A stretch of DNA of 64,000 nucleotides from Kondoa subrosea (lineage: Eukaryota), in assembly GCA_039545335.1 (NCBI GenBank), contig BCIN01000004.1, forward strand, positions 1 through 64,000, written 5' to 3'. The translations under genes and the position numbers were made by a program. Positions 1-52,121 of the stretch are shown piece by piece. The first letter of the stretch is position 1; the number at the start of each line of letters is the position of its first letter. The notes under the pieces were generated by a model. That model did no database searches and was not told the origin of the DNA. It saw only the letters and a list, made by a program, of their open reading frames with translations.

Positions 1-303
1 CAAGCTATCTGGAAGAAGTTGCTCTTATCAAACTTACAGCGTCCTGTCATTGGTCCTCTGCCTCTGAAGAATGACAACTATGGCAACATCTGTCTATGTC
101 ACAATCCTGGTATGCGCGATCGCACCAAGCACATCGCCATTCATCATCATTTTATTCGAGAGAAAATTGAAGCTGGTGACATGGACATCACTCATTGTCC
201 GGCAGCCGACATGATTGCCGACATTCTTACCAAAGCCTTGCCAAGAGAAACCGTTGTCAAACATCGCATGTCAATGGGTCTACGGAAGTTTGGTCAAGTC
301 TAA
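1..303 (+). mobile_element. Ty1/copia LTR retrotransposon pol 3' end (RNase H), partial and probably decayed
   Basis: Translation has DNYGNI..HNP..RDRTKHIAIHHHFIREKI..MIADILTKAL, the copia RNase H signature. A purine-rich tract (305-313) and an LTR start follow the stop. Confidence 0.9.
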
Positions 304-25897: not shown

Positions 25898-28814
25898 CTA
25901 TGCTTGTGTCCCTGTCGCAGGAGTCGATATAGCGAGCCTTGGGTTCTCGCAACGGATCCCCATTGCAGTAGAAGCTTTCCTTTGACCGGAGCTCAGTTGT
26001 GGCTCGCGCTCTGCCGAAGGTCGCAGCAACTTACAAGCCTTGTCCTTGAACACTCCTGTTGAGTCTTTTGAGTCTTTGGCCGCCTTGCGAGCAAGCAGTT
26101 TTCCGATCCATTCTTTGGCGAAATGTCGAATCTTTCTCTCTTTTTCCATAGATAGGCTGTCGTATTCTGCATCCGCAAACGCAACAGACTTAGTCTCCTT
26201 GTCGACTAGCAACATGGTAAGCTAAAGCAAAACATCAGACCACTGCAGCTTCGTGTGAATGGCCGTACTTCTTGTGCCCGCCGCTTAAACTCGTCTTTGT
26301 TCAACTGATCTCTGGCATACTTTGTCATTGCCTTCACGACAAGAGGTGAGAATAACCTCATAGCCTTCTTCTCTTTGGACATGGGCAACTTCTCTTTCTT
26401 CGTTCGATTCACGACCTCACTCTGTGGTTTTGATCTCTCATGCTCTAAAATTGAATTGGCTGCATTTGTTTTCGAAAGACCTAGCGCCTCTGCTTCGGCT
26501 GAGGCCCTGGCGATTATGTCTTCGAGATCTAATCCTGGTTTGCGGAGCTTTGCAAGATAAGCTTGATGAATTGCTTCAGCTTCCTTCTGGGATGGCGGCG
26601 TCCAGGTCGTGGTCCCGGTACCAATATGATAGTAGTAACGAGCGCCGTGTGCCGTTTCCGCAGATTGCCATCCCTCGTAGATCGAGATTTCGCTCGCAGC
26701 TGCAGTTCTAGTCGGAGCCGCAGCAGCATAATTCGCGTTCGGAGATCTATGATAGTCATCCAACTTTGCTCTTTTGATCGAAAAGACAGGCGCTAAAGCA
26801 TCGGATCCATGTTTGCGTCCGTCGCTACCGAGTAAATTCTGTCGAAAGAAAATTGAGCACACGAGTAGCACGTTTCAGGGTACATAGAAGACCGACCTGC
26901 ACGTCGCACGGAATCCAATAAGCCAGACGGAGCTCGCTCCAATCTGCAATAAGTGCTCTGGCTAAGTCCTTCGTTTCGGTCTCGAATGGACCTTGCATAA
27001 TGCGCGCAACGATTGAATCTACAGATGTGCGTGATATCTTATTACAACTGATCAGCGGCCATTTTCGCATAATTTGTAGCACGGAAGCAACAACTTCGTT
27101 TGGATCGTCCATGTATTCTTCCAATAACATACTCATCAAACTGAAACCACGCAAACGCATAAGTTGACTATGCACTGTTGTGTCGATTGTGATGAGCAGC
27201 CGCATAAGTAGCTTAAGGAGGATGCGCTTTGTCGATGCCGGCTGACGCACGGCTGCAATGACTTTTGGTACTTCTTCCAATTGAATTGGTCGCATAACAG
27301 GCTAAAAGATTTGAGACACATGCATGCAGATCAGCCAGACTATTACTCACATTAAAGTCGTTATCATCAAGACTTCGGCTTTTCTTGCGCTTATTGCCTC
27401 AGAGCTCTAGCAGTTTCACTTCGTCCGTGATTCCCAATGCTATTCAGCTCCTTAGCAGAGCGAGCTGTCACTGAGTGAACACTAACCGTCAAGGTACGAA
27501 TTATCGAGAAAACCAACATCGGTCTGAGTCTTGCCGCCAATGAAGCCGACACAATTTGACTCTCCACAGTAGCATTCTTGCACATCGTGGCTTTGTTTGA
27601 CAACATGTCAGAGGCAGCGCGACTTGGGCAATATAATTCCTAGACATACCCATAGCGGTCAACGTTCTAATTGAAGGTCAGTTCTCTTCGCCGCGGTGGA
27701 TCTTGCGCTTAGTGAAGATGCCCATACGAAGTTTTCTGCCAACCACCCATTTCGCAACATAACAATTAGGATTACAAGAATGATTAAGAAAGCGACCCTT
27801 GCCGCCGCGTTTCGTTGCGTCAATGGACTGTCGAAGCTTCGGTTTAGCAAAATACGGTTCCTGATCAGGAGTTCCCACCTCATCCTTTTGTAAAGCCATG
27901 AAGTAGAAGTGGCGAATGCCCTCCTCGTAGTACTCAGTCATACGTTTGACATAGTTTTTGTGCCCAATGACTTCGCCAATATACTCATACACCAAAGTAT
28001 CGCTGTAATATATTCAATGAGTGAATATTTGATGGAAACGACTGATTGTGACCTACGCAGGTAAAGTCACTTCAGACATAACGCCGTAGCCTTTGCGAGG
28101 TGTTTGAACGATTCTTATGGGTGCGTATTGTTGCTGCTGGAGCCGTGCAACAGCGGCATTTCAAGTTCCGCACGCTTGAGAAGAATGCTGATACACTTAC
28201 CTTTGATTCTGACAATGTGTCTGACAGTTACATTCGTTCTGAAGGCATTCCACTTGAGTCAGCCGATTAATACAGCCGCTGTTTTAGCCGCAAGCAACAT
28301 TTGGACCAATTGTGATAGTTTAAGCCAATAACCAAGGGAACCGGCGTCGCAAGCTCATAGATTCAGTCGCATTGGAAGGAATCGTCTTTTTGCTTAGCTA
28401 GGCCAAGAAACTTGTTCTGGTAGGTGTTGAACTGTATTTCAATAAACTCACTCATTGCCTGAGCAGATCTCTTAGTCAAAACCCTGATCTGGGAAGTATA
28501 TAGCACACTTCTGTTCCCGCATCGGGAAGCTCCAGTATTGTTCGAACACCGGCCCACGACTTCATGTCATCTTCGGACGATTGCACTTCCTTTTGCACTT
28601 GATCTATTTTGTTTTGGGCGGTCTTTTGCTCTCTAGCACTATGGTCCTGACTTGTTCGTGGGCGAGTCAGAATGACACGTTGGGATCTTCTAGGTGCAGG
28701 TGTATTCGCTACTGCCTCATTAGTCTCTAAAACACCAGAAAAGGCATCTTCGGCAGCAGGCGTGCAGACCGGCAAGAGGGTAACACTTTGTGGTACATTA
28801 TAAGCCGCAGACAT
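25898..28814 (-). CDS. SET2: Histone H3K36 methyltransferase (AWS-SET-postSET, WW, SRI)
   Basis: [39 protein letters not shown] motif GWQSA..YYYH..TTWTPP and an SRI-like end ([13 protein letters not shown]). Confidence 0.93.
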
Positions 28815-29580
28815 GGTCGTTGGTTGACCCTAAATAACAAATATCGTCAATACTCGATGGTTTAGAATGGCGATACGAATTGAACGAACGGACATTCAAA
28901 TAATGATTTGCCCGTACTGTATCTCAGGCCGGCACAGATGTGTAATATCGGATCCAGTTGAAGTTTGGGATCAAATTCCAGATTGGCGCTAAGAGTTGTA
29001 GGGAGGCAGAGTGCAGACGCCTGAATGTTGCGCTGATGGTATCGCACAAGGTGGATCGCTACAGCAGATATTTCTTGTTGTTGTTGTCCTGTTCTCAGGC
29101 TGTAAAGCTCGTGATTTGGTCAGGTTCCAGTGGTGGTGGTCAAATGCATCGAAGCGATGTTTATGGATTCGCGAGTTTTCATGACTCATGAGTACATAAG
29201 GCTGCATAAGGCTCTGGGCCAGAGGGAAAGAATCGTTTCTGATTACCACAGCCTGAGCACTCTAGTAGCGATCAGACAAATGCCACCTACAGCCTGAGCT
29301 ATGTGGTTCTATGATGTGTCTTTTAGAATCATTCTTGTGTCAAGCTCGGATCTAGCATCTGATAGAGTACGTGGCTGACTTCCGTGACATGTTCCTGCAT
29401 TACACCGCATGCCATTCCCGTCCCATCATTCCGGGCAGGGATGTAATATTACAGAGATGAAGGTTCCACCCCAACTATCAATAGTAGCACTCTCAATAAC
29501 GCCAACCTGACCTCTTGAGCCTCCATTATATGTAGTTACATGTGCCTGTAGCGGGCTTGAGCTGACGAAAGCCCTCTATG

Positions 29581-29656
29581 TTCCTTTGTCAAAGTCTGTC
29601 ACGGTTTTGCCTTTTGATTTGTGCAACAAAAGGCCTATTGTCCGAAAATGTATAAG
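29581..29656 (+). promoter_or_regulatory. Pheromone gene promoter with HMG-box-like ACAAA/ACAAT sites and a TATA element
   Basis: TTCCTTTGTC (29581-29590), inverted pair GCCTTTTG (29609-29616) / CAAAAGGC (29627-29634), CCTATTGT (29634-29641) and TATAAG (29651-29656), about 100 bp upstream of the ATG. Confidence 0.5.
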
Positions 29657-29750
29657 GCTTGGGAATTCCTACCTTCTTGCTTGCTTTCATCCACATATTC
29701 TCACGCTTCACCTAACCGCCCCTTCACATTCCTTTTGAATTCGGCTGAAC

Positions 29751-29990
29751 ATGCCTTCCGCTATTACTTGCACCGTCGACCCTAGAAANACTCCAGGTCC
29801 ACCAGGCGGTATTGGTACAGTCTGTGTCGTCTCTCGTAACACTCCAGGTCCACCAGGCGGTATTGGTACAGTCTGTGTCGTCTCTCGTAATACACCAGGG
29901 CCCCCAGGTGGCATTGGCACAGTTTGCGTCGTCTCTCGTAACACTCCAGGACCTCCGGGTGGCATTGGCACAGTCTGTGTGATTGCTTGA
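29751..29990 (+). CDS. Mating pheromone precursor with four tandem CAAX-type peptide units (RHA/rhodotorucine-like)
   Basis: MPSAITCTVDPR-[xTPGPPGGIGTVCVVSR]x3-NTPGPPGGIGTVCVIA*. Terminal CAAX (CVIA), internal CVVS-R, 51-bp repeat with synonymous differences in the peptide moiety, and STE3 in the same window. Confidence 0.9.
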   Translation: MPSAITCTVDPRXTPGPPGGIGTVCVVSRNTPGPPGGIGTVCVVSRNTPGPPGGIGTVCVVSRNTPGPPGGIGTVCVIA

Positions 29991-30272
29991 TTCGGCAAAA
30001 CCACGGTCAGCTCATCTGCAGTTGCAAATATTTCGAGGCTCACGCATGTCTGCTGCCGCAGCCAGTACAATAGGGTGATGGCGAACTACGGTGTTTCCGG
30101 TTTCGCACGGTTGTAATCGAGAATTTGTAGTAGTGCAATGTGTGAATGTAAATACTGATCTCGCGAGATCAATGTTTCCGCATCGAAGTATCATCCTTTG
30201 ACCCCCAGTCTTCGAAAATCTGTCCTTCCAAACTTCACGTTCCAAAGTTTACCTGATGCGCTCAGTCTATCC

Positions 30273-30980
30273 TCAAAACCACAGACTAACCGAAAAAGAT
30301 GGGTCGAGGCTTTGCATACCATGCCACCATAAAGGTGGCATGAGCAGCAGGTCCCCAGGCTGCAAGACCGTCTCTTGAGCTCCAGCCTCGCGCATACCGT
30401 AAGCTCTACGCTCGCGTCGTCGGAGAAGACGTCTATGTTCGAAGTATTACCGAAGACACTGGCATTTGGTGCATTCAATAAATCTCCCGATTCATTGTTT
30501 GCAGCTTTGTTGCGCATGTCCACTTCCGGCGGGGCTAGCCAGACCCGTTTGCGGCCAACTACTTGTGCTATTCCTTCAAAATGAGATCTCTACTGCCGGA
30601 CAGCGCATATCGGGAGAAATATACCGTAGGCATTATAGTACGGATCGGTATGCGCTGGACTAACGGTCCCTTTAGGCCCAAGCCATGCATTAACGGCAAC
30701 ACCTGTATTGGTCGCGGGCGAAACATAGACGGCGCTTTGAGGTCGAATGGTGAAGACGCAGTCCGGAATCAGCATATCCTTCATCAGCTGCGGAAATTGC
30801 AGAAAAAGATCGTGCTGGGCTAGGTATTGTACTTCTTGCTTGCTAGATGCAGAACCATTGCAAAGAGAAGATAAGGATTCGATGAAAGGCCTCATTTCTT
30901 GCGACCATCCGTCCTTTGTGTAATCGCGACCAATTTCGACCGGTACCATTCGATCTGGACCAGCTGCACGCGAGAGTAGG
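30273..30980 (-). pseudogene. JMJD5/KDM8-like JmjC oxygenase, 3' part only, cut off by the adjacent retroelement
   Basis: LLSRAAGPDRMVPVEIG, YLAQHDLF, NAWLGPKGTVSPAHTDPY and DLLLMPPLWWHGMQSL..SFSVSLWF*. The frame runs into retroelement sequence at about 30985. Confidence 0.7.
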
Positions 30981-30984
30981 CAAG

Positions 30985-32228
30985 ATACCTCCCCCTTCCA
31001 GGCTCCGGCCAGTGTGCAACACCTCCCCGGGCGTGCGAGTTGCCTAGTGGGGGAAACACATGCTTAGGGAGGGGGTTAAAGAGATTATATTCCTGTCTAC
31101 AACGACCTTTCTACTGACACATAACTGAACCCAAATACTTGATACTTGATCCCATACTTCCGATGCTTTTCTCCGATACTGATACTGATACTGAATCCAT
31201 GCTTTCCTGACTGTTCTCTGTCTACTCTTGAGATATCCATCACTTGTCTTCTTCTGCTCAGCGTTTGCTTCTTTTGACCTTCTTCATATGCCTTTCAATT
31301 GAGCCTCCCAATCTCGCAATGCCACCAAGACCTTCCGCCCAGCGTCTTCATCTTTCCCATTTGCTAGATTTCTATCTACCCATGTCTTTACTCTGAAATC
31401 CTTCAAATCCTCGGTGTACTGGTAAGAAGGGAACTTGATTTCTATTCTAGTGAAGTGAACCAAGCAAATAGCATGATACTGATGAAATTGACGACCACAG
31501 ACGCAGGTGAGCCGGTTACAGAACTTCATTCCACGCCATTTGAGAGCTCGGTCTCTGTCGAATCGATCTGGTATTCTGAAGACGAGATCGGACAGATCAG
31601 GTCCTCGAGATTCGGGGTGAACAGCTTTGCCCATATCGCGCGTCTTCGTCTCTAGATACTGCAGTCTTTTCATTTTAAGGAAGAATTTGAGCTTAGCTTT
31701 AATTTCTTCCACTCCATCTTCCGCACAATCTTCCTCGAATCGGTGGTACAGCTCGAACCCAATCAAGTTATTGATGAGAATAGATTCCGTTTGATTGGAC
31801 GTCATATCTAGGTACATCAAGGCAGGATTAGTAGAGTCCAACCGATTCAGATGAAAAGCGAGAGAGCAAGCCATATGCTCCAATCGCACGAATGGCGGAA
31901 TGAGGCCAGTCATGGATTCGGATAGAAGCCATCGCTTGTCGGACTGATGGGCGATCCAGGTCACTGCTTTTCGATGAAGTTCAATGTATCGATTCATCAC
32001 TTGCGATGATTTGCGTTTTGGTACTTCTTGTAGCCGATGATGCAGGAACCCGCTGCCATAATCGATGAGCGAGCCACAGAATGAACGATATATGGTGAGG
32101 CGAATTCGAGGCGACCATGTTCCTCCTTTCGCACAAAGAAATCGAAAAACTCTTTCCATCTTCGACAGGGGAACAGAAGCGGAGAACTCTGACCGGAAGC
32201 TGAGTGTCCATAATTGGAGCGTTTTCAC
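30985..32228 (-). mobile_element. 5'-truncated non-LTR (LINE-like) retrotransposon: post-RT region, Cys/His motif and 3' UTR
   Basis: Intronless 314-aa ORF (31284-32228) with LTIYRSF..SLIDYG, HRKAVTWI, TGLIPPFVR and CVCGRQFHQYHAIC. No YADD RT core is present. The UTR has low-complexity GATACT repeats at about 31135-31195. Confidence 0.75.
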
Positions 32229-33729
32229 TACTGAGAGCTAGATGCATGCTCAGCGGACGTATGATTTTGTCTATTGCTGGAAAGTGATTGCTTGATAGAG
32301 TCACCCGCAAGACATAGCCTTCGCCGCTAACAGCCGAATCGGTATGAATGCCTTGCTGTACTATAAGGAACCAAGCAGAACCTTGCGTCCGCGGAAAGAA
32401 AAGAGAAGTGGATGATGCGCTGGCAAGCAAGCAAATCAGATTGACTTTGTTGAGCGACCATTTGGGAGAGTATCGTGCGAGAGCAAATAGACTCGCGAAG
32501 TGCAGGCAAGTCCAAAGAGACGGGTCCTGGAGAGCAGCAAGATGTATAGCAGTGGAATTGACGGTGGCTGTTCAATCTTAACAAGATTCTTATTAGCCTG
32601 TGCGTCTGTGTTCACCTGTGTTGCTCAATTACCAGCATGGGAGTAGGGGTATAGCTGTCAAACTTCGTATACAACTTTTGCTGGACCTCAAGTCAAACAA
32701 ATCGACTCTTTGTTCCACTTTCGAGTTCCTATTCGTTTAGTCAATCGTGGCTGTGGAGCTTTGCGGGCGCGGAAAGCTATCATACCTCGTCCTTCTGAGC
32801 CCGAAAATTCACGCGCTACTAAGCAAATGCTGCCGCGGTTTCCAGTTTGCGTAACGCGATACCGCATTGGAAATGCCAAATCGTCCAGCATTCCGAGCTT
32901 CTGCTCTTTTGAGCGAAACAGCTGCTCAAGGCTGGGCGGCAGAGCTGTTCTCGTTCAAGACTCGGTATAAAAAAATACACAGCAAAGCCAGCATGTCGAA
33001 ATTGGCGCCGAAAGGCGGAACTCTCTCGGCTGCAGTAAGTTGTCCGAAACAAGGTCTTCAAGCCAAAAGGAACTTGAGCAGTATTCGATATTAATCAATC
33101 AGGAGTCTTGTAATGAGGAATAATTGGCCACATCTATAGCGTGGAAGGAAACGAGAAGTGAGCTGATTTGTATGGAGAAGCTTTGCAACAGAGTCATGAT
33201 GAGATAAAGCAGGGGAACGGACCTTGCTAAACGATTTACAATTAGCATAGGAATATTGGGAATCTACACGCTCAAGCAAAGTGGCACATGTTCAAATATA
33301 CGATTTCGACAAATCAGGCAACAAATTGCTCGAAGTAACGATAAGAAGGTTGCGAGAAGATGTTGGGCTCTGTCGCTTCACTTTTGCCAGATCTGTGTTC
33401 AACTGTATCAGATACATTTTCTCCGGGTTGTCACTCACGGTACATGTCGGTCGGTGTCTTTGAAGGGCTACTTCCCCTTGGCCGTAGAATGTACGATTGC
33501 TGGGCACTTGTAAAATATGTAGGCTCTGCCTTGGTATCTTGTTTCGTCCCTTTATTACCATGCCTGTGTTTCCGATGCGTACTATTCACTGGAAGGATGG
33601 TAGAGCTGACAATTTCTCTGCACCTATCAGATCTCTTTTGATGAATTACAGAACTTAACTTAAGGTTACCTTTGTAATTCACTTAAAAAATGTCACTTGA
33701 GGGGAAGCCTTTCTCTCCTACCATCCTGC

Positions 33730-34356
33730 ATGGCTCGCTTTGTGGAATACCAAATCATCGGGCGCAAGCTTCCGTCCGAGAACGATGAACAGCCAAAGCT
33801 CTATAGAATGCGGATTTTTGCACCAAACGAAGTGGTAGCCAAATCCAGATTCTGGTATTTCTTGCGCAAGCTACGTAAAGTGAAGAAGGCGGCTGGTGAA
33901 TTGGTTGCTATCAATGTGGTACGTATGCTGACTGCGAGGTTCGAGTGGCCTTGCTGACCCATTTGCGCTCAGATTTCTGAAAAGAAGCCATTGAAGGTCA
34001 AGAACTTCGGCGTTTGGCTCAGATACGACTCTCGTTCGGGCACGCACAACATGTACAAAGAATACAGAGAACTTTCGAGGGTAGAGGCTGTACATGCTTG
34101 CTATCAAGACATGGCAGCTAGACATCGTGCTCGGTTCCGTTCAATCCACGTTAGTTCCTCAACCAAATGTCGGCATAGGCTAATGTTTTGTTTTCAAATA
34201 CAGATCTTACGAGTGGCAGAAATCCAGAAAACTGCCGACGTCCGTCGCTCAAACATTAAGCAGCTGTTGACACCCGGACTACGTTTCCCTCTGCCACATC
34301 GCGTCATCAAGTCACGCTCAAAATTCTTGGCCAGTCGACCATCCACCTTCTATTAG
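33730..34356 (+). CDS. RPL20: 60S ribosomal protein eL20 (L18ae/L20)
   Basis: [42 protein letters not shown] and C-terminal RPSTFY*. Two introns. Confidence 0.96.
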
Positions 34357-42147: not shown

Positions 42148-42457
42148 GCTTCTCCGTTTCTCGAGACTCAGGTCGATCCAAGCTCGTTGCAAAAGAAGCC
42201 CGAAATTGCATTGGTAACAAAATCGGGGCAAGTAGACGCAGGCTTTTTCAGGCTACCCCTCCTGCAAAACGAGTTTTATGAATGCGTAAAATTAATTCGA
42301 TGCAGACCTCATCAGGACGGCTCGTCTAGAGTACTTTAAACCCTGCTCTTGCGTACTGCTTGCCATTTGCCCGACTAAGCTCGCTGTCATTGCCCTTTAG
42401 GCCTCTTCGCGTGTTCCTTAGAGTGCTTTGTTGCAACTGTAGCGCTAGCTGAGCCCG

Positions 42458-45400
42458 TTACTGAGTAGCCTTCCGAATCATCTATTGCCAATGTCAGCAA
42501 CGATTCGCATGGGGTTGAGCCAGCCCGAACTTCTTTAGCCCATTTGGCAAGAGCTTTGCTTTCTGAATCACTTGGTCTCGTTCTGGCAGCCTTGAGAGCT
42601 TCATTCACCCAATCGTTTTGTAAAAGTGGTTTCACTTGCCCCTGAGGGAAAGCATCGGCCAGGTCGCCTAGTAGTCCGATCGAAGAACGAAGAATGCTCT
42701 CTGTACGTTCTGAGGCGGACAACACAAGCTGCAGAAAGGTGAAGATGGCGCCGACGTGAGGGAGCAGCAATGTACCTGCAAACAACTATTGGTGGGAGTA
42801 TGTCGAGGGCCGATGACTTACTTTGTGAGCTACTTTTCAAGCCAGCAACTATACCGATGTATGCCTCCAGAATACTTTCACGAAGACAGATGATGTAGTC
42901 CACCATGTCGTAATCCAGCTGTAAGTAAGTCTCATGAATTTGCAGGGCAGTATAGAAAGAGCAAACTCACAGGATCTGCACGCATAGAGCCAGCCTGTTG
43001 CAATACGCTCAAAGTCGTGGCCAAAAAAGGTTCGAATGAACCACCAATGGCAAGTGCAATATCACCGAAACAGCTGAGAATGGGAGGCTTCACGTTTCGA
43101 TGCAGTATGTTGCTCTGAAGATTGGCAAGCAGAACTTCCATGAAACCTTGGCAGTAAGGCAGACTGCCATCGCCAAGCCCTCGACAAATATCGCCAATCA
43201 GACCTACAGCAATTGAGCATAGCTGATAGTCTTGATGTGATTGAAGTGCATCTATCAGTGAAGGTAGAAAGGCTGGTAGGTAGATAGAAAAGCTCGTTTC
43301 CAGAGCTTCGGAACCGTCAATTCCAAATATATACAGCACAATTACACATACTGGAGATGGCGGCACCAACGCATAGAAATGCGTCTTCCAGTACGGGTGA
43401 TTGCTTAGGTGCAGTCTGAATAATTTGAAGCAACAGAGTCATAATTCTGTCAGCAAAAGGAGAGATGGCCTCCTTCCTAAAGCGTCGGATGATGCTCTAG
43501 CATTCCGACTGAGCTAACGGAAGATGCAAGAAGAGATCAAATTTACCGTCAAAGCGTTGCAGATGTTCATTTGGATCTCGTTGTAATTGTTGCGGTCATC
43601 TGAACCGACGATTTGTGTCTGCATGCCAAGCATATGCTCTGATCGATGTAGAAGTGCTGTCGTTAGCCCGTTGATCGTGACCGAGCAGTCGTTTGGAGCA
43701 TGTGCGATCAGAGCAGCGAGAGCCTCGTACCCGGATGTACGGGAATTTGATTCGTTGGTGCTTCTAGCATTTCGTCTTAGCTTCTATCTGCCAAAAATTT
43801 GCGCCCACGCACGCTTCGGTCATACGCAATAAAGCAGATGTAATCCCGTCGAAAAAGGGACTGAGCAGACCAGTCTCGGCTGAAGAGTCCCCTAGTTGCT
43901 CTCCCAAATTCATCAAGCCCCAGCAGCAGTTACTGATTACTCGAGGGCTCTCCCCCAGGCCTCGCACTAGCGCTGTGACCAAGCTTGCCAGATGAAGTTC
44001 TGTATTTACAGTCGAGATGAGGACATCACATATTCTGCCTAGTGTCCAGGCAGTAGTGTCCTTGACATGAGCATTCGGGTCTTGCATCATTTCGATAATG
44101 GTCGGTAGAGCTTGCGAAACAAGAGGCAACAATAGCTTTTCTTCTGGGCCATCTAAAATTGAGCCGAATGCCATGATAGCCGCCTCACGATGATGCCAAT
44201 CAGTGCTCTTGATGTGATCTTCGACAAAGGGGATGATAGGTGTTACAATACTATCACCGACCGCTTGCGCCAGGAGCGCAAGACAAGTTCCAGCTGCCAT
44301 GCTAAGGTTCCATTCATCTTCTGCGGCGTCTTCTTCTTGGCGGGTCAATTGCAATAAGATTACTGGCAAAATTTCGGGCAAAGCAACACGCGCAAAATGA
44401 TGAGATTCGCGGTCGGAAACTTCATCATAGGCAGCGGCTTCTTCTGATTGCAAGGCCAGCTCTATCTCTTCATCACATACTGTGGACCAGAATTCGACAG
44501 CTTGAAGTGCGACTCGTTCCTCTTCGTGTTTCATGCCCATGATGGTCAACTGCGCTCTCATGTGAAGCCGGACTTGATAAAAGATCAATGATCTCCACTA
44601 ACCCCGAATAAAGCTTTCTCCATGTAGAATTGCATCTTGTCGTAAAAGAGTTGCATTATCTTGACCAAGCACTCAAATGCGGCAACTTGTACGTCCGGTG
44701 ACTGTGATTGAGTCGCTTCGCAGACAACTTGCATAATGTAATTGCGCTCGCCCTGTGCAACATACGTATACACGCATCGCTCAGCCTCTGAGCAAGAATA
44801 AAATAATACGTTGCTCACCTCCCTCTCGAAATTGTCACGTATAAATTCAAGCGAGTTCACCAAAGCGACGATAGCCGCCAATCGGACCTCCACATTTGGC
44901 TCTTCCTGTCGGGCGCCTTGAATGACAGCAGTCAGAATCTGGTTCGATTGGGCCAACAAGATTTCTGGACGCTACATGGTCGAGCATGAGGGAAATCCGT
45001 CCAAAAGCCAAAAGTACTGACAATTTGCTCGCAAATATACCCAATCGCTTGTAAACTCGCTTGCCGTAGCCCTGCGTTGTCTGCTCGGGCACCAAACGAT
45101 AGAAGCTGATCCACAAGGTCTGGCCAAAGACCAGCGGGCAGTTCAATGCATGCAATAGCAGCAATGACTTGACCAGCAACATTTCTCGCTCCCCTGTCAC
45201 TACTAGCAAGAGTGCTGAGGGCACCGCTCTTGACGTCTTCGCGGGTAGCAATTTCAAGGCTCAGCCAACGCTGAGCATGAAGGTCTTTCGTAAGATTTTC
45301 GCGAGCTGAGAGGGTGTTCTTGATAGCCAGACCTGCGGCATTCCTGAGATGAGGCTGCGCGCCGTCGTCGCGCGCAAGAGTTTGAGTTAGAGCTCGAACA

Positions 45401-45513
45401 TAGTCGCCATACGCAGATGAAGCCAGCTGTTCAAGCTGCGCCGTGGCTGTCTGTCGAAGACTCGCGTCTGGGGATAGAGACGCAGATAAGAGGTCTGCTA
45501 CAGTCTGCGACAT
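42458..45513 (-). CDS. KAP95: Importin subunit beta-1
   Basis: IBN_N motif LRNAAGLAIKN, ERNYIMQVVCEATQ, LQAVEFWSTVCDEE, AAIMAFGSILDGP and KPPILSCFGDIALA. Confidence 0.95.
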
Positions 45514-45667
45514 CGGCAAGTCGTTCAAGGCTTTATGGTGGAAATGGATGAAGCTCGAGCTTTTGAAATTTGGCCGAAGGCAAAGCAAAGTCGACCAACT
45601 CGCAATTGTAGCGAAGCCTCTCGCGACTTGCAGCCGGCCTTAGCCAAGCACTCGTGTCAGTCAATAA

Positions 45668-46272
45668 ATGGCCCGTAGAACGTCTGCAGTGAGCAGCAGG
45701 CAAGTCTCGTTTAATCAAGCTCACGCCATGCCTCAATAGGTTAGAGGCGGCCCGCGTGATGTTGCAGCCTCTCGAGGAGGCCGTACAGCCATTCAAGGAG
45801 GTCGTGACGTTCGAGCTCCGATTCTGGACCTGTCAATCTACCTCGACAAACAAGGTGCGCGCCTCATTTGTACCTCACACTCTGGCTTGCTCATTGAGCG
45901 CAGTCAGAGTCAAGTTTTCTGGAGGACGAGAAGGTACTGTCTTGGGTGGTTTGGCAGGCATTTAATGAGACCTCCCCCTTAGTCACAGGAACCCTCAAAG
46001 GATACGACGCCCTCTTGAACCTGGTGCTTGACGACGTAGAAGAAGATACGATAGGTAGGCTTTTGGCATTGCTTGTAAAGCGGTAGCTGATATGCGTTCC
46101 CTGTAGGGGAAGCTCTTACAGAAACCCGTTCGCTAGGTCTAGTAATTTTAAGAGGTACGGCTGTGGTGGTGATTAGCCCAATGAATGGGTACGTCGGCTC
46201 GCGCCGTAGCGCGCAAGACGTGCTGATGTTTGTTAAAGCATGGAGGAAATTCCAAATCCTTTTGCCCAATAA
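45668..46272 (+). CDS. LSM7: U6 snRNA-associated Sm-like protein Lsm7 (five short exons; not captured in the ORF track)
   Basis: Spliced by eye to ILDLSIYLDKQVRVKFSGGREVTGTLKGYDALLNLVLDDVEE..TRSLGLVILRGTAVVVISP..MEEIPNPFAQ*. Confidence 0.9.
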
Positions 46273-46335
46273 CGCCTAAGCATGAAACAACAGTACAACG
46301 AGATGTATTCGAGAAACATCCGGACGAGCTTGCAT

Positions 46336-49740: not shown

Positions 49741-50631
49741 TCCACCAGGGATAGATACATTGATCCTTCAAAGGGGACACAGCCAAACTACTCCTGTACT
49801 TTGCTGCCCGATAATGCTTTCAATAAAGACCCAGATCATTGAACATGCACCCGGCGTTGCCAACTTCCGATCGCACGAGCCACCGACTGCAAGCTCCACC
49901 ACAACAAGCTTGTCACTAACCGCGCGCCTGAATAATCATCAGTGACGTGAGCAGAACAATAGTAATAATATAAATGGCCCAGCTTACACATCAATATCAC
50001 GCCCTTTGCGAGGAGCCAACATGCTAAACGTCGGCGTGGATCGTTGAAGTCGATGTGCTTTGATTCGTAGCCTTCCGAAACATCCATCACGCAAACTGTA
50101 CCATTCTGCCGATTGAGTATATCAGCAGCGGATGTGAATCGAAACCTGACCATCAGAACATTCGCTTCCGTCTTCGTTCGGACTTCCTTGAGTATTTCCG
50201 ATCATATCTGGGTCTTCTGCTTCCATTTTGGTATCGCGTTCGCCTTCAGACAAGTCAGCATTGACTAGTGCTCAGAGGCACCCGAGGAAGCCGTACGAGC
50301 CGCTTTCGCAGAAGAACGAGTGCCATAAACAGCAACAGTGGCTATCATTGCAGCAGTAAGGGGCCAGCCCAGAAATTGCATAGCAGTCCAGCCTCGAATG
50401 GGAGTGATACGGTATGAGATGCAACGGCCGAGGCATCTTGAGACTGCCTGTCTCTCATGGGCAGCAACATTCGAGGCTACAAAGCCTACGTTTGCTGCAT
50501 GGTGATACCGTAGATGAGCTGTCGAGAGACCTATGTTTATAATGTATGACCTGAACATTGTTTGAAGTATGTGGCTGGGGCCAACAATTGACGAGGTGGT
50601 AGCTAAACCATAACACATGGACCTTTCGAGA

Positions 50632-50659
50632 GTCTTTTGTTCGAAGGTCTTTTTGTTCT
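50632..50659 (-). promoter_or_regulatory. Tandem pheromone-response-element-like HMG sites upstream of STE3
   Basis: GTCTTTTGTTC (50632-50642) and GTCTTTTTGTTCT (50647-50659; reverse complement AGAACAAAAAGAC), 50-80 bp before the ATG. Confidence 0.55.
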
Positions 50660-50709
50660 CACCAAAAATATCATCTCAGAGTATTTCCCCTTTCGTTCCT
50701 TTTATCACA

Positions 50710-52121
50710 ATGGACTTCCCTTACGTAGTGTTTAGTGGTCTTTGCGTCTTGCTCAATTTGATTCCTTTCGCCTGGCAAATCGAGCACCGCAATGGCGGTA
50801 CTATTTGCCTGGTATTTTGGGTATTGATAATCAATCTGTCCAACATGGTAGGAAGATCTCTGTTACTGCCGATCCGGACTGATCAATTAGTACGCAGGTG
50901 AACAGTATCATTTGGAGAAATGATGCTATAGACCGTGTCCCTGTTCTCTGCGATATAGCAGCGAAGGTAGTGTTGCTTGTGCTATTGTTGTCTGGCGCGT
51001 CTCAGACTCGATTCTTTAGATCAACCTCGCTGGACCATTTGGTATCTTATGTTCGACGATATGCATTGTGCATTTCTTGGCCAGAGTAATGACGCCGTCC
51101 GCCGGCATGTTGACAAGAAATGATAAACGTCGTCGCGCCGTTTTGGATTATTCGTTATCTTTGGGCTTTCCGTTGTTGATAATGGCATCGCACATTATAT
51201 ATCAACCCACTCGGTATGGTATCTCACAGACAACTGGCTGTACCTACACTCTGGTCAAAACGTGGCCTACCTATATACTTCTGTGGGTATGGCCTCCGGT
51301 ATTGGCGTTCATTGGCGGGTCTCTGGGTGGTACGATTCGTGTTACACGCTGATGAGCGAAGTATTCTGATACCTACTATTAGTCTACGTAGTGTACCGTC
51401 TGTTGCAACATCGCCGGGATTTCGGAAAGCTCGTCGCCAACTCAAACTCAGCTCTGACTGCTTCACGTTTCATTCGTCTGGGTCTACTTTCTTTGAGCTG
51501 GTTGGGCATCAATGTACCGTTCTCGATTTACAATTTCATACACATTCAACGGAACGGTGTTTATGAAGATTATGATTGGCAGTATGTTCACAGCTATGTA
51601 AGCACGTCAGGTGCATGAATCTACCCACTTGTTTCATAATAGATCGTGAAATAGTTTCAAGCACCTTTACAGCGACCGCTCTATCCGAAAACAACATTCT
51701 ACGACTGGCAATCCATTATAGCAGGCATCCTCGTCATTATTTTCTTTGGCTTCAGTCAAGAAACATTTGCCTACTATGGGCGCGTCGGACGAAAGGTCGG
51801 ATTGGCTCCGCTACTTGCCTTTCGCAAGCGCGCGAGACTTGAGGCCTCCAGCGAACGGGGCGTCGACTCCCCTTACATTGGTCTGCAGTCAATCAGGTGA
51901 ATGTCTCTTGTTTATTGATGTTCGTCGGAATTTACACAGCTCTCAGACTCGACAAGACCTTCGGAACGTCGTCTTCAGAGCAGGATCTCACCAAGACCTT
52001 ACACATGCACCGAGTTGAAAGTCAAAAAAGAAATCATTCGAACGGTCTACCAGGCGGTGCTAAATTCAACTCGACAGCGGTGCTCAAAGTAAACGTTGTA
52101 CGGGAGGAGCAAATAGTTTGA
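50710..52121 (+). CDS. STE3: STE3-type lipopeptide pheromone receptor (7-TM GPCR), spliced
   Basis: LIPFAWQIEHRNGGT..VNSIIW..PVLCDI, KRRRAVLD..GFPLLIMASHIIYQPTRY..GC, WPPVL, SALTASRFIRL and IFFGFSQE. Confidence 0.95.

Follow-up and report, generated by a model that had tools for sequence, protein, structure and literature searches.

A probable four-unit mating-pheromone precursor gene of the A1/RHA1 type in a candidate pheromone/receptor region of Kondoa subrosea

The stretch of DNA analysed here, i.e. positions 1 to 64,000 of contig BCIN01000004.1 of Kondoa subrosea (the window), contains a small open reading frame (ORF) on the plus strand, at 29751..29990, which is interpreted in the following as a gene for a mating-pheromone precursor carrying four copies of a single peptide. 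This ORF runs from ATG to TGA, comprises 79 codons plus the TGA stop and is preceded by an in-frame stop 4 codons 5' of its ATG, with the stop-to-stop ORF extending over 29739-29987. The encoded protein of 79 residues is of a cytosolic type without a hydrophobic signal sequence (as judged by eye) and ends with CVIA directly before the stop. It starts with a polar leader of 12 residues, MPSAITCTVDPR (29751..29786), the last residue of which is the Arg preceding unit 1, and continues with four peptide units of 13 residues, read (X/N)TPGPPGGIGTVC, all of which terminate in Cys and are spaced by a single Arg. Unit 1, (N/K)TPGPPGGIGTVC followed by VVS and R (29787..29837), contains the only undetermined base of the entire 64-kb window, the N at 29789, in the third position of codon 13 (AAN, i.e. 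Asn or Lys); at the remaining 50 bases it is identical to unit 2, and the codon at the ambiguous site is AAC in the orthologue described below. Unit 2 (29838..29888) and unit 3 (29889..29939) both read NTPGPPGGIGTVC followed by VVS and R, and unit 4 (29940..29990) consists of NTPGPPGGIGTVC followed by VIA and the stop, which makes its end a canonical terminal CAAX box. Tandem Repeats Finder reports a period of 51 with 3.7 copies and 88% matches for the ORF, and the back-translated unit has 4 matches in the window, all inside the precursor ORF, with 0.00 expected from 100 shuffles. The C-T-V-D sequence in the leader was considered as a decayed fifth CAAX unit, an idea which was dropped because this Cys is an Arg in the orthologue.

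An initial annotation, made from the sequence of the window, had described the same layout (79 codons, a 12-residue leader, three units ending in CVVS-R and a final one ending in CVIA-stop), which was confirmed by re-reading 29751-29990, and had counted 9 and 7 nucleotide differences between unit 2 and units 3 and 4, respectively, all at synonymous third positions. On recount these numbers are exact: the 9 base differences between units 2 and 3 are all synonymous third-position changes, and unit 4 differs from unit 2 by 7 synonymous changes in the first 14 codons, to which 5 tail differences (V>I, S>A, R>stop) have to be added. About 30% of the single-base changes in a unit are expected to be synonymous. 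In simulations, P was 6.5e-5 for 7 random changes in 42 nt being synonymous throughout, and of 200,000 trials with 9 changes in 51 nt, 0 gave synonymous changes only. In line with the selection on the peptide proposed in the initial annotation, the coding frame is under strong purifying selection, within the gene as well as in the comparison with the orthologue. In the plus frame, the 22 pairwise codon differences among units 2-4 come with 0 residue changes, whereas in four of the other five frames nearly every differing codon entails a residue change. The remaining frame belongs to an antisense ORF of 85 residues (29708-29965, minus strand) with MPPGGPGVLRETTQTVP-type repeats, which within the window is nearly as well kept, with one variable residue (I/M) versus none in the plus frame. 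Because this antisense ORF shares the wobble positions of the plus frame, the synonymous pattern within the window alone cannot fix the coding strand.

The strand could be fixed by a comparison between species. A degenerate unit-pattern scan of public metagenome contigs yielded 2 contigs, L001 and L002, the former with a truncated copy of almost the same gene as the latter. The orthologous precursor ORF (L002:823-1062, plus strand) has 79 codons in the same layout as in the window, i.e. a leader, MPSAATRTVDPR, followed by four NTPGPPGGIGTVC units with the tails TVS-R, TVS-R, VVS-R and VIA-stop. The two genes differ at 48 of 239 called bases (80% identity) and in 42 codons, with 38 of these codon changes being synonymous (TGA>TAA counted) and 4 being replacements. 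Two of the latter are located in the leader (I5A and C7R, i.e. 2 of 12 residues), and the other two are V>T changes at the first position after the Cys in units 1 and 2, a tolerant position of a CAAX tail. In the 52 peptide codons (51 comparable) there are 27 differences, none of which is nonsynonymous. Moreover, 8 of the 8 unit boundaries in the window gene and the orthologue have an Arg-Asn junction. The Arg codons themselves differ between the two taxa by two-base synonymous steps (AGA/CGC, CGT/AGA). At the X position, the internal boxes have Ser and the terminal one has Ala in either taxon. Strict purifying selection acts on the peptide, on the Arg and on the type of box. The alignable conservation runs from the ATG to the stop, with flanks that cannot be aligned (129 and 122 identical positions of 200 in a forced global alignment).

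This comparison also bears on a quite different explanation, namely that the minus strand is the coding one or that the locus is a non-coding minisatellite with open frames that arose by chance. With its shared wobble positions and its single I/M change within the window, the antisense ORF would be compatible with coding, and it is open in both taxa. Between the taxa, however, the antisense frame shows 12 residue changes out of 79 versus 4 in the plus frame, its extension past the ATG of the plus frame is not conserved, and its start Met is due to a single synonymous variant of the plus frame. Neutral evolution of a minisatellite, on the other hand, would not leave 38 of 42 codon changes synonymous, and neither version accounts for a CAAX box after each unit and a stop right after the last box. 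For practical purposes, the between-taxa comparison excludes this explanation, to which we attach almost no probability, and the strand is taken as plus.

Another strain of the species is represented by DNA contigs from two public runs of one sample, for which the region 29300-30500 was compared. These were the only public runs found for this stretch, both being DNA assemblies, with no RNA run listed among them. Relative to the window these contigs show 14 substitution places in 961 flanking nt plus several small indels, and because of these differences in the flanks the two runs stem from a strain other than that of the window, in which the pheromone gene is the same. For the 240-nt ORF, which in these data is covered by short repeat contigs only, the difference table lists no difference, with one low-depth contig (depth 7.6) deviating at a single letter. 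By a Poisson estimate, the chance of finding no difference in the ORF is about 0.02-0.03.

Which genes surround the precursor ORF was addressed by a Pfam scan of stop-to-stop ORFs from all over the window, with ORFs of less than 60-66 residues being covered at 38.0-41.0 kb and 45.7-46.9 kb only, and with 100 of the 112 ORFs of at least 66 residues that start right of 42.6 kb being included (the 12 omitted ones, at 42852-45640, lie over KAP95). A gene for a STE3-type pheromone receptor was found 21 kb downstream of the pheromone ORF (50711..51897, plus strand, with an approximate 3' end). It looks intact and consists of five exon pieces, with the ATG at 50711: four ordered ORF pieces cover positions 1-245 of PF02076 (E 6.8e-8 to 5.1e-29), a fifth piece matches positions 264-292 weakly (E 0.0059), and frame-consistent GT-AG introns of 50-57 nt (50848-50897, 50967-51019, 51330-51382 and 51598-51654) are available to link them. 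A search with exon 3 for allele typing gave no match among 101 candidates of 'longer' lengths, and a search of the Atlas with STE3 returned weak, uninformative rows only (best 0.87). The interval between the pheromone gene and STE3 includes the exon for ribosomal protein L18Ae/L20 (RibL18ae; 33958..34353, plus strand, PF01775 E 1.6e-15), an mIF3-like gene, Rpn9/PSD13, a gene for a Trm8-type methyltransferase and KAP95, which encodes importin beta (42390..45639, minus strand, with TPR_IMB1, HEAT and IBN_N matches). Beyond KAP95 there follow a divergently oriented LSM-domain gene (45898..46276, plus strand, PF01423 E 5.1e-6 and 0.0099 in two adjacent ORF pieces), malate dehydrogenase, an SQS/PSY-family gene and an RRG7-like gene, and 3' of STE3 lie ASF1 and an ApoO-family gene. 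The immediate neighbours of the pheromone gene are a divergent SET/WW/SRI (Set2-like) gene upstream (26206..28013, minus strand) and a convergent Cupin_8/JmjC-like gene downstream (30590..31063, minus strand), both recognized by Pfam. In Rhodotorula and other Sporidiobolales, KAP95, LSM7 and RibL18ae are recurrent genes at pheromone/receptor (P/R) loci, with RibL18ae flanking STE3.A1, LSm7 flanking STE3.A2 and RHA2 being amplified between STE20 and KAP95 (PMC3236058; 10.1101/2025.09.11.675505). The LSM gene together with KAP95 would correspond to the LSM7-KAP95 module of red-yeast P/R loci, with the label LSM7 being putative.

Several further features were seen in these surroundings. Between the JmjC-like gene and RibL18ae, i.e. 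within the putative P/R interval, there are two overlapping ORFs of 317 and 196 residues on the minus strand (31284-32571), which have no Pfam match except for a sub-threshold one to CLLAC (E 0.004) in the second. Forty-five ATG-started ORFs of 15-150 residues in the window end with C-x-x-x, and 10 of these, including the precursor, have aliphatic-type boxes; repeated units are absent from all others of these 10. Immediately upstream of STE3, and in divergent orientation to it, there is an ORF of 23 codons that ends in the CAAX-type box CVMV (50603-50674, minus strand). A second pheromone gene would be expected in this position beside the receptor, but the ORF shows no repeated units and has a basic, non-pheromone-like sequence, and probably is open by chance. 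At the left edge of the window, a 5'-open ORF (1-303, plus strand) has no Pfam match, and its end presumably represents a typical C-terminus of a Ty1/copia-type retrotransposon polymerase. It is followed by two families of direct repeats (383-666 and 2323-2525, about 1.9 kb apart, with 83% and 90% identity) that could be long terminal repeats. The literature would be in keeping with a transposon bordering a P/R region (10.1101/2025.09.11.675505).

The upstream region of the pheromone gene contains a TATA-like sequence, TATAAGG (29651..29657, plus strand), about 100 nt 5' of the ATG, which may be a promoter element; the orthologue has TATAAAGG about 107 nt 5' of its ATG. Further upstream there are two motifs resembling the core of a high-mobility-group (HMG) box target (29583..29632), ACAAAGG on the minus strand at 29583-29589 and ACAAAAG at 29626-29632, as a possible pheromone-response element. 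Two such ACAAAG/ACAAAAG motifs in the window compare with 4 in the 300 nt upstream of the orthologue and with a background in which 4.1% of all 300-nt windows contain at least two, a count that is exploratory and post hoc, as the motif was loosened after the data had been seen. Counted over the two strands of the entire window, ACAAAGG has 15 occurrences versus 7.95 expected, a number reached by 1 of 100 shuffles. These sites are scattered, with one of them 165 nt upstream of the pheromone gene and without clustering at the two mating genes, and the enrichment is not specific.

With respect to the organism, genes in the window other than the precursor point to a basidiomycete that groups with the Microbotryomycetes. 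For an ORC2 exon, the nearest Atlas clusters are basidiomycete. The 18 best matches of a KAP95 exon all belong to Microbotryomycetes (Pseudohyphozyma, Meredithblackwellia, Rhodosporidiobolus, Sporobolomyces, Rhodotorula, Microbotryum and two further ones) with 70-74% identity, as compared to 64-65% for rusts and 63% for Mixia. In a maximum-likelihood tree of KAP95 with 27 rows, the window joins 15 Microbotryomycetes rows with a support of 92/87, which is below the star threshold of the tool. In the same tree its terminal branch is long (0.41 versus a median of 0.077), which may reflect a deep lineage or else faster evolution in a recombination-poor mating-type region. The two DNA runs that contain the stretch comprise about 19 million letters each, which together with the gene density fits a small yeast genome and not that of a rust. 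Because no annotated species is close, the best KAP95 exon match being 74% identical, the lineage appears to be unannotated in the collections searched.

How does this gene relate to known pheromone systems? The precursors of rhodotorucine A contain tandem peptides, each ending with Cys and a CAAX-like spacer, and a true C-terminal CAAX (PMC3068285), and the likening to these precursors in the initial annotation was apt. It had also set them apart from mostly single-unit basidiomycete pheromones; the design is not special to Rhodotorula, as it has also been published for Microbotryum, other Sporidiobolales, Aimea and the MFA1 gene of rusts. RHA1-3 of Rhodotorula (Rhodosporidium) toruloides and RHA.A1 of the Sporidiobolales share with the gene described here the tandem CAAX-tailed units and a P/R region with STE3, KAP95, LSM7 and RibL18ae, and differences between strains are synonymous only (PMC3236058). 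In contrast to the RHA genes, the peptide has no relative by database search, there is one copy without inverted repeats in 64 kb as compared to several in red yeasts, and STE3 is flanked here by the RRG7-like gene and ASF1 rather than by RibL18ae/RibL6, with no STE20 nearby among the ORFs scanned. The spacer residue is Arg here and Lys in Rhodotorula. In Microbotryum, a1 loci encode three tandem identical repeats and a2 loci a single unit, with synthetic peptides inducing conjugation structures (PMC4675872). Identical tandem units and a peptide conserved across species under purifying selection are common to the Microbotryum a1 genes and the gene in the window, with three repeats there versus four here, a comparison by design as the Microbotryum sequences are printed in a figure only (PMC4675872). 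Aimea cardamina, a member of the Microbotryomycetes, has four peptide copies per precursor; here too the comparison is one of design since the peptides appear in a figure only. Its P/R a1 allele has five identical RHA1 genes with four units each, as opposed to one gene in the window, in a genome of about 19 Mb with about 50% GC (PMC13082103), and the organism of the window differs from it because its KAP95 exon is only 71% identical. The MFA1 genes of cereal rusts encode 74-76 residues with three tandem repeats and lie at 10 kb to 0.54 Mb from the STE3 allele (PMC10977897); these are also small tandem-repeat precursors with a CAAX end, but their repeats are unlike one another, whereas those described here are identical, and rusts belong to a different order with much larger genomes. 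Among ascomycetes, the h-type precursor HPP1 of Trichoderma reesei has several CAAX units, and its authors liken it to rhodotorucine A maturation (PMC3068285). For h-type precursors, Kex2-type or acid-basic sites are discussed, in contrast to the single Arg in a basidiomycete found here, and membership in this ascomycete (Hypocreales) class was rejected, as the organism is a basidiomycete grouping with the Microbotryomycetes. The a-factor of Saccharomyces cerevisiae, which undergoes CAAX-dependent prenylation, C-terminal trimming, methylation and N-terminal proteolysis before non-classical export (PMC2134810), differs in that its precursor contains a single unit and has a long N-terminal extension.

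Taking these data together, we consider it very probable that the ORF is an A1/RHA1-type precursor gene for an a-factor-like lipopeptide mating pheromone and lies in the P/R region of a basidiomycete yeast related to the Microbotryomycetes. The multi-unit CAAX pheromone proposed in the initial annotation is supported, as it fits all sequence-level tests available, i.e. frame selection, the boxes, the Arg-Asn junctions and a STE3 gene at a distance of 21 kb in a region with LSM-KAP95 and RibL18ae. In the Sporidiobolales, precursors have four or five repeats in one mating type and two in the other (PMC4675872), and the four-unit form suggests that the allele may be of the A1 type. A number of observations weigh against this interpretation. 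A word-index search of protein databases with the precursor found no homologue among 2321 candidates, and an exhaustive phmmer search gave 9 matches with E <= 1e-3 and none at 1e-10, with the 4 of these 9 that were inspected being unrelated repeat proteins matched on periodicity. No Pfam family matches the precursor at E <= 0.001, the sole match at E <= 10 being Candida_ALS (E 0.19, 12.6 bits versus a cut-off of 25). Because of this lack of a homologue in two very large protein collections, kinship with RHA1 rests on design and context rather than on alignment. Furthermore, red yeasts and Aimea usually have several pheromone gene copies near STE3 (PMC3236058; 10.1101/2025.09.11.675505; PMC13082103), whereas the 64-kb window has a single one, with the unit pattern occurring nowhere else and with neither an inverted repeat of at least 40 nt nor a second copy of the flanks. 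The window ORFs scanned with Pfam include no STE20-type kinase, no STE12-like gene and no homeodomain (HD) gene. The orthologue adjoins a Got1/Sft2-family gene (L002:1450-2023, plus strand), which follows it where the window has the JmjC-like gene, and since its neighbours differ from those in the window, any linkage of the orthologue to a P/R region is hypothetical. To this the antisense frame has to be added, which has stayed open in both taxa. As to the Got1/Sft2 neighbour, either the two taxa differ by a relocation of the pheromone gene or the copy in L002 is a different, paralogous one.

It is also conceivable that the gene is of the pheromone type but no longer defines a mating type, i.e. 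that the lineage is homothallic or asexual and the gene provides a signal for a self-receptor or is a conserved relic. A single P/R haplotype has been seen, the one other strain carries the same gene, and red yeasts retain MAT genes in species without a known sexual stage (PMC3236058). Strict purifying selection speaks against a relic but not against self-signalling, and overall we regard this possibility as very improbable.

If the ORF is a precursor of an active pheromone, a pathway for its maturation can be proposed. A Ser or Ala at the X position of a CAAX box specifies farnesylation rather than geranylgeranylation (PMC9141697), and with X being Ser or Ala in the boxes of all four units farnesylation would be expected for each. 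The terminal CVIA would be farnesylated by CAAX farnesyltransferase, its last three residues would be removed and the Cys probably carboxymethylated, while an endoprotease cutting at each Arg-Asn junction would free the N-terminus of the downstream unit. The internal units would need an extra step, because a cut after Arg leaves C-V-V-S-R rather than a four-residue CAAX box. Either the Arg would be lost to a carboxypeptidase, or the cut would be made before the Arg, or the five-residue box would be accepted as such, with prenylation of CVVS as the outcome; yeast and mammalian farnesyltransferase can indeed accept C(x)3X ends (PMC9141697). The initial annotation had stated that cleavage after Arg exposes each CAAX and yields a farnesylated 13-mer: the farnesylated 13-mer can be kept, but the exposure step is imprecise, since it skips the trimming of the Arg. 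No plausible mature form would be longer than this 13-mer, for which the calculated [M+H]+ is 1373.75 when farnesylated and 1387.77 when also present as the methyl ester. Up to four molecules of farnesyl-NTPGPPGGIGTVC could be released per precursor and exported by a Ste6-type ABC exporter, and these lipopeptides would then start conjugation by activating the opposite mating type's STE3 allele.

Only the final box is a true C-terminal CAAX, and the enzymes that mature the internal units of rhodotorucine A are given as unknown in the description of that system (PMC3068285), which leaves room for a precursor in which just the C-terminal CVIA unit is matured and the internal CVVS-R units are spacer or leader material. 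Against this stands the conservation of all units with their Cys, the Ser at X and the Arg-Asn junctions (8/8) across two taxa, despite changes in 27 of 52 peptide codons (51 comparable). The internal units are unlikely to be mere leader, because the true leader has changed at 2 of 12 residues and the peptides have not changed at all. Maturation of the last unit only thus seems unlikely, and release of a peptide from each of the four units remains the preferred interpretation.

The kind of system described here is already known, with tandem-unit CAAX precursors having been reported since rhodotorucine A and now in four groups of Pucciniomycotina. The gene would therefore be a further example of a known design with a peptide that seems new: a 12-residue stretch of it is absent from the searchable text of papers, a search that did not extend to figures and bioRxiv supplements, such that publication in a figure is possible. 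More tentatively, and with somewhat more doubt than confidence, we propose that NTPGPPGGIGTVC represents a hitherto undescribed pheromone from a deep, unannotated lineage grouping with the Microbotryomycetes, that it may act as an A1-type signal shared across species, and that its precursor may be a very clean substrate for finding the protease and trimming steps of internal units. A cross-species role is suggested because NTPGPPGGIGTVC is identical in at least two taxa in which synonymous sites are heavily changed and flanks cannot be aligned, and the usefulness as a substrate follows from the single-Arg spacer and the invariant Arg-Asn junction.

Overall, a gene of a type usually missed by automatic annotation (PMC8545103), together with a P/R mating-type region, has now been located in the genome of a basidiomycete yeast that apparently has no annotated proteins in the collections searched. 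This provides a concrete peptide that could be synthesized and used in mating tests with this lineage, the sexual cycle of which probably is unstudied. That the mature peptide has stayed constant while about half of its codons have changed fits the pattern of the Microbotryum a1 pheromones, and this constancy bears on the question of how far pheromones can underlie pre-mating isolation in these fungi.

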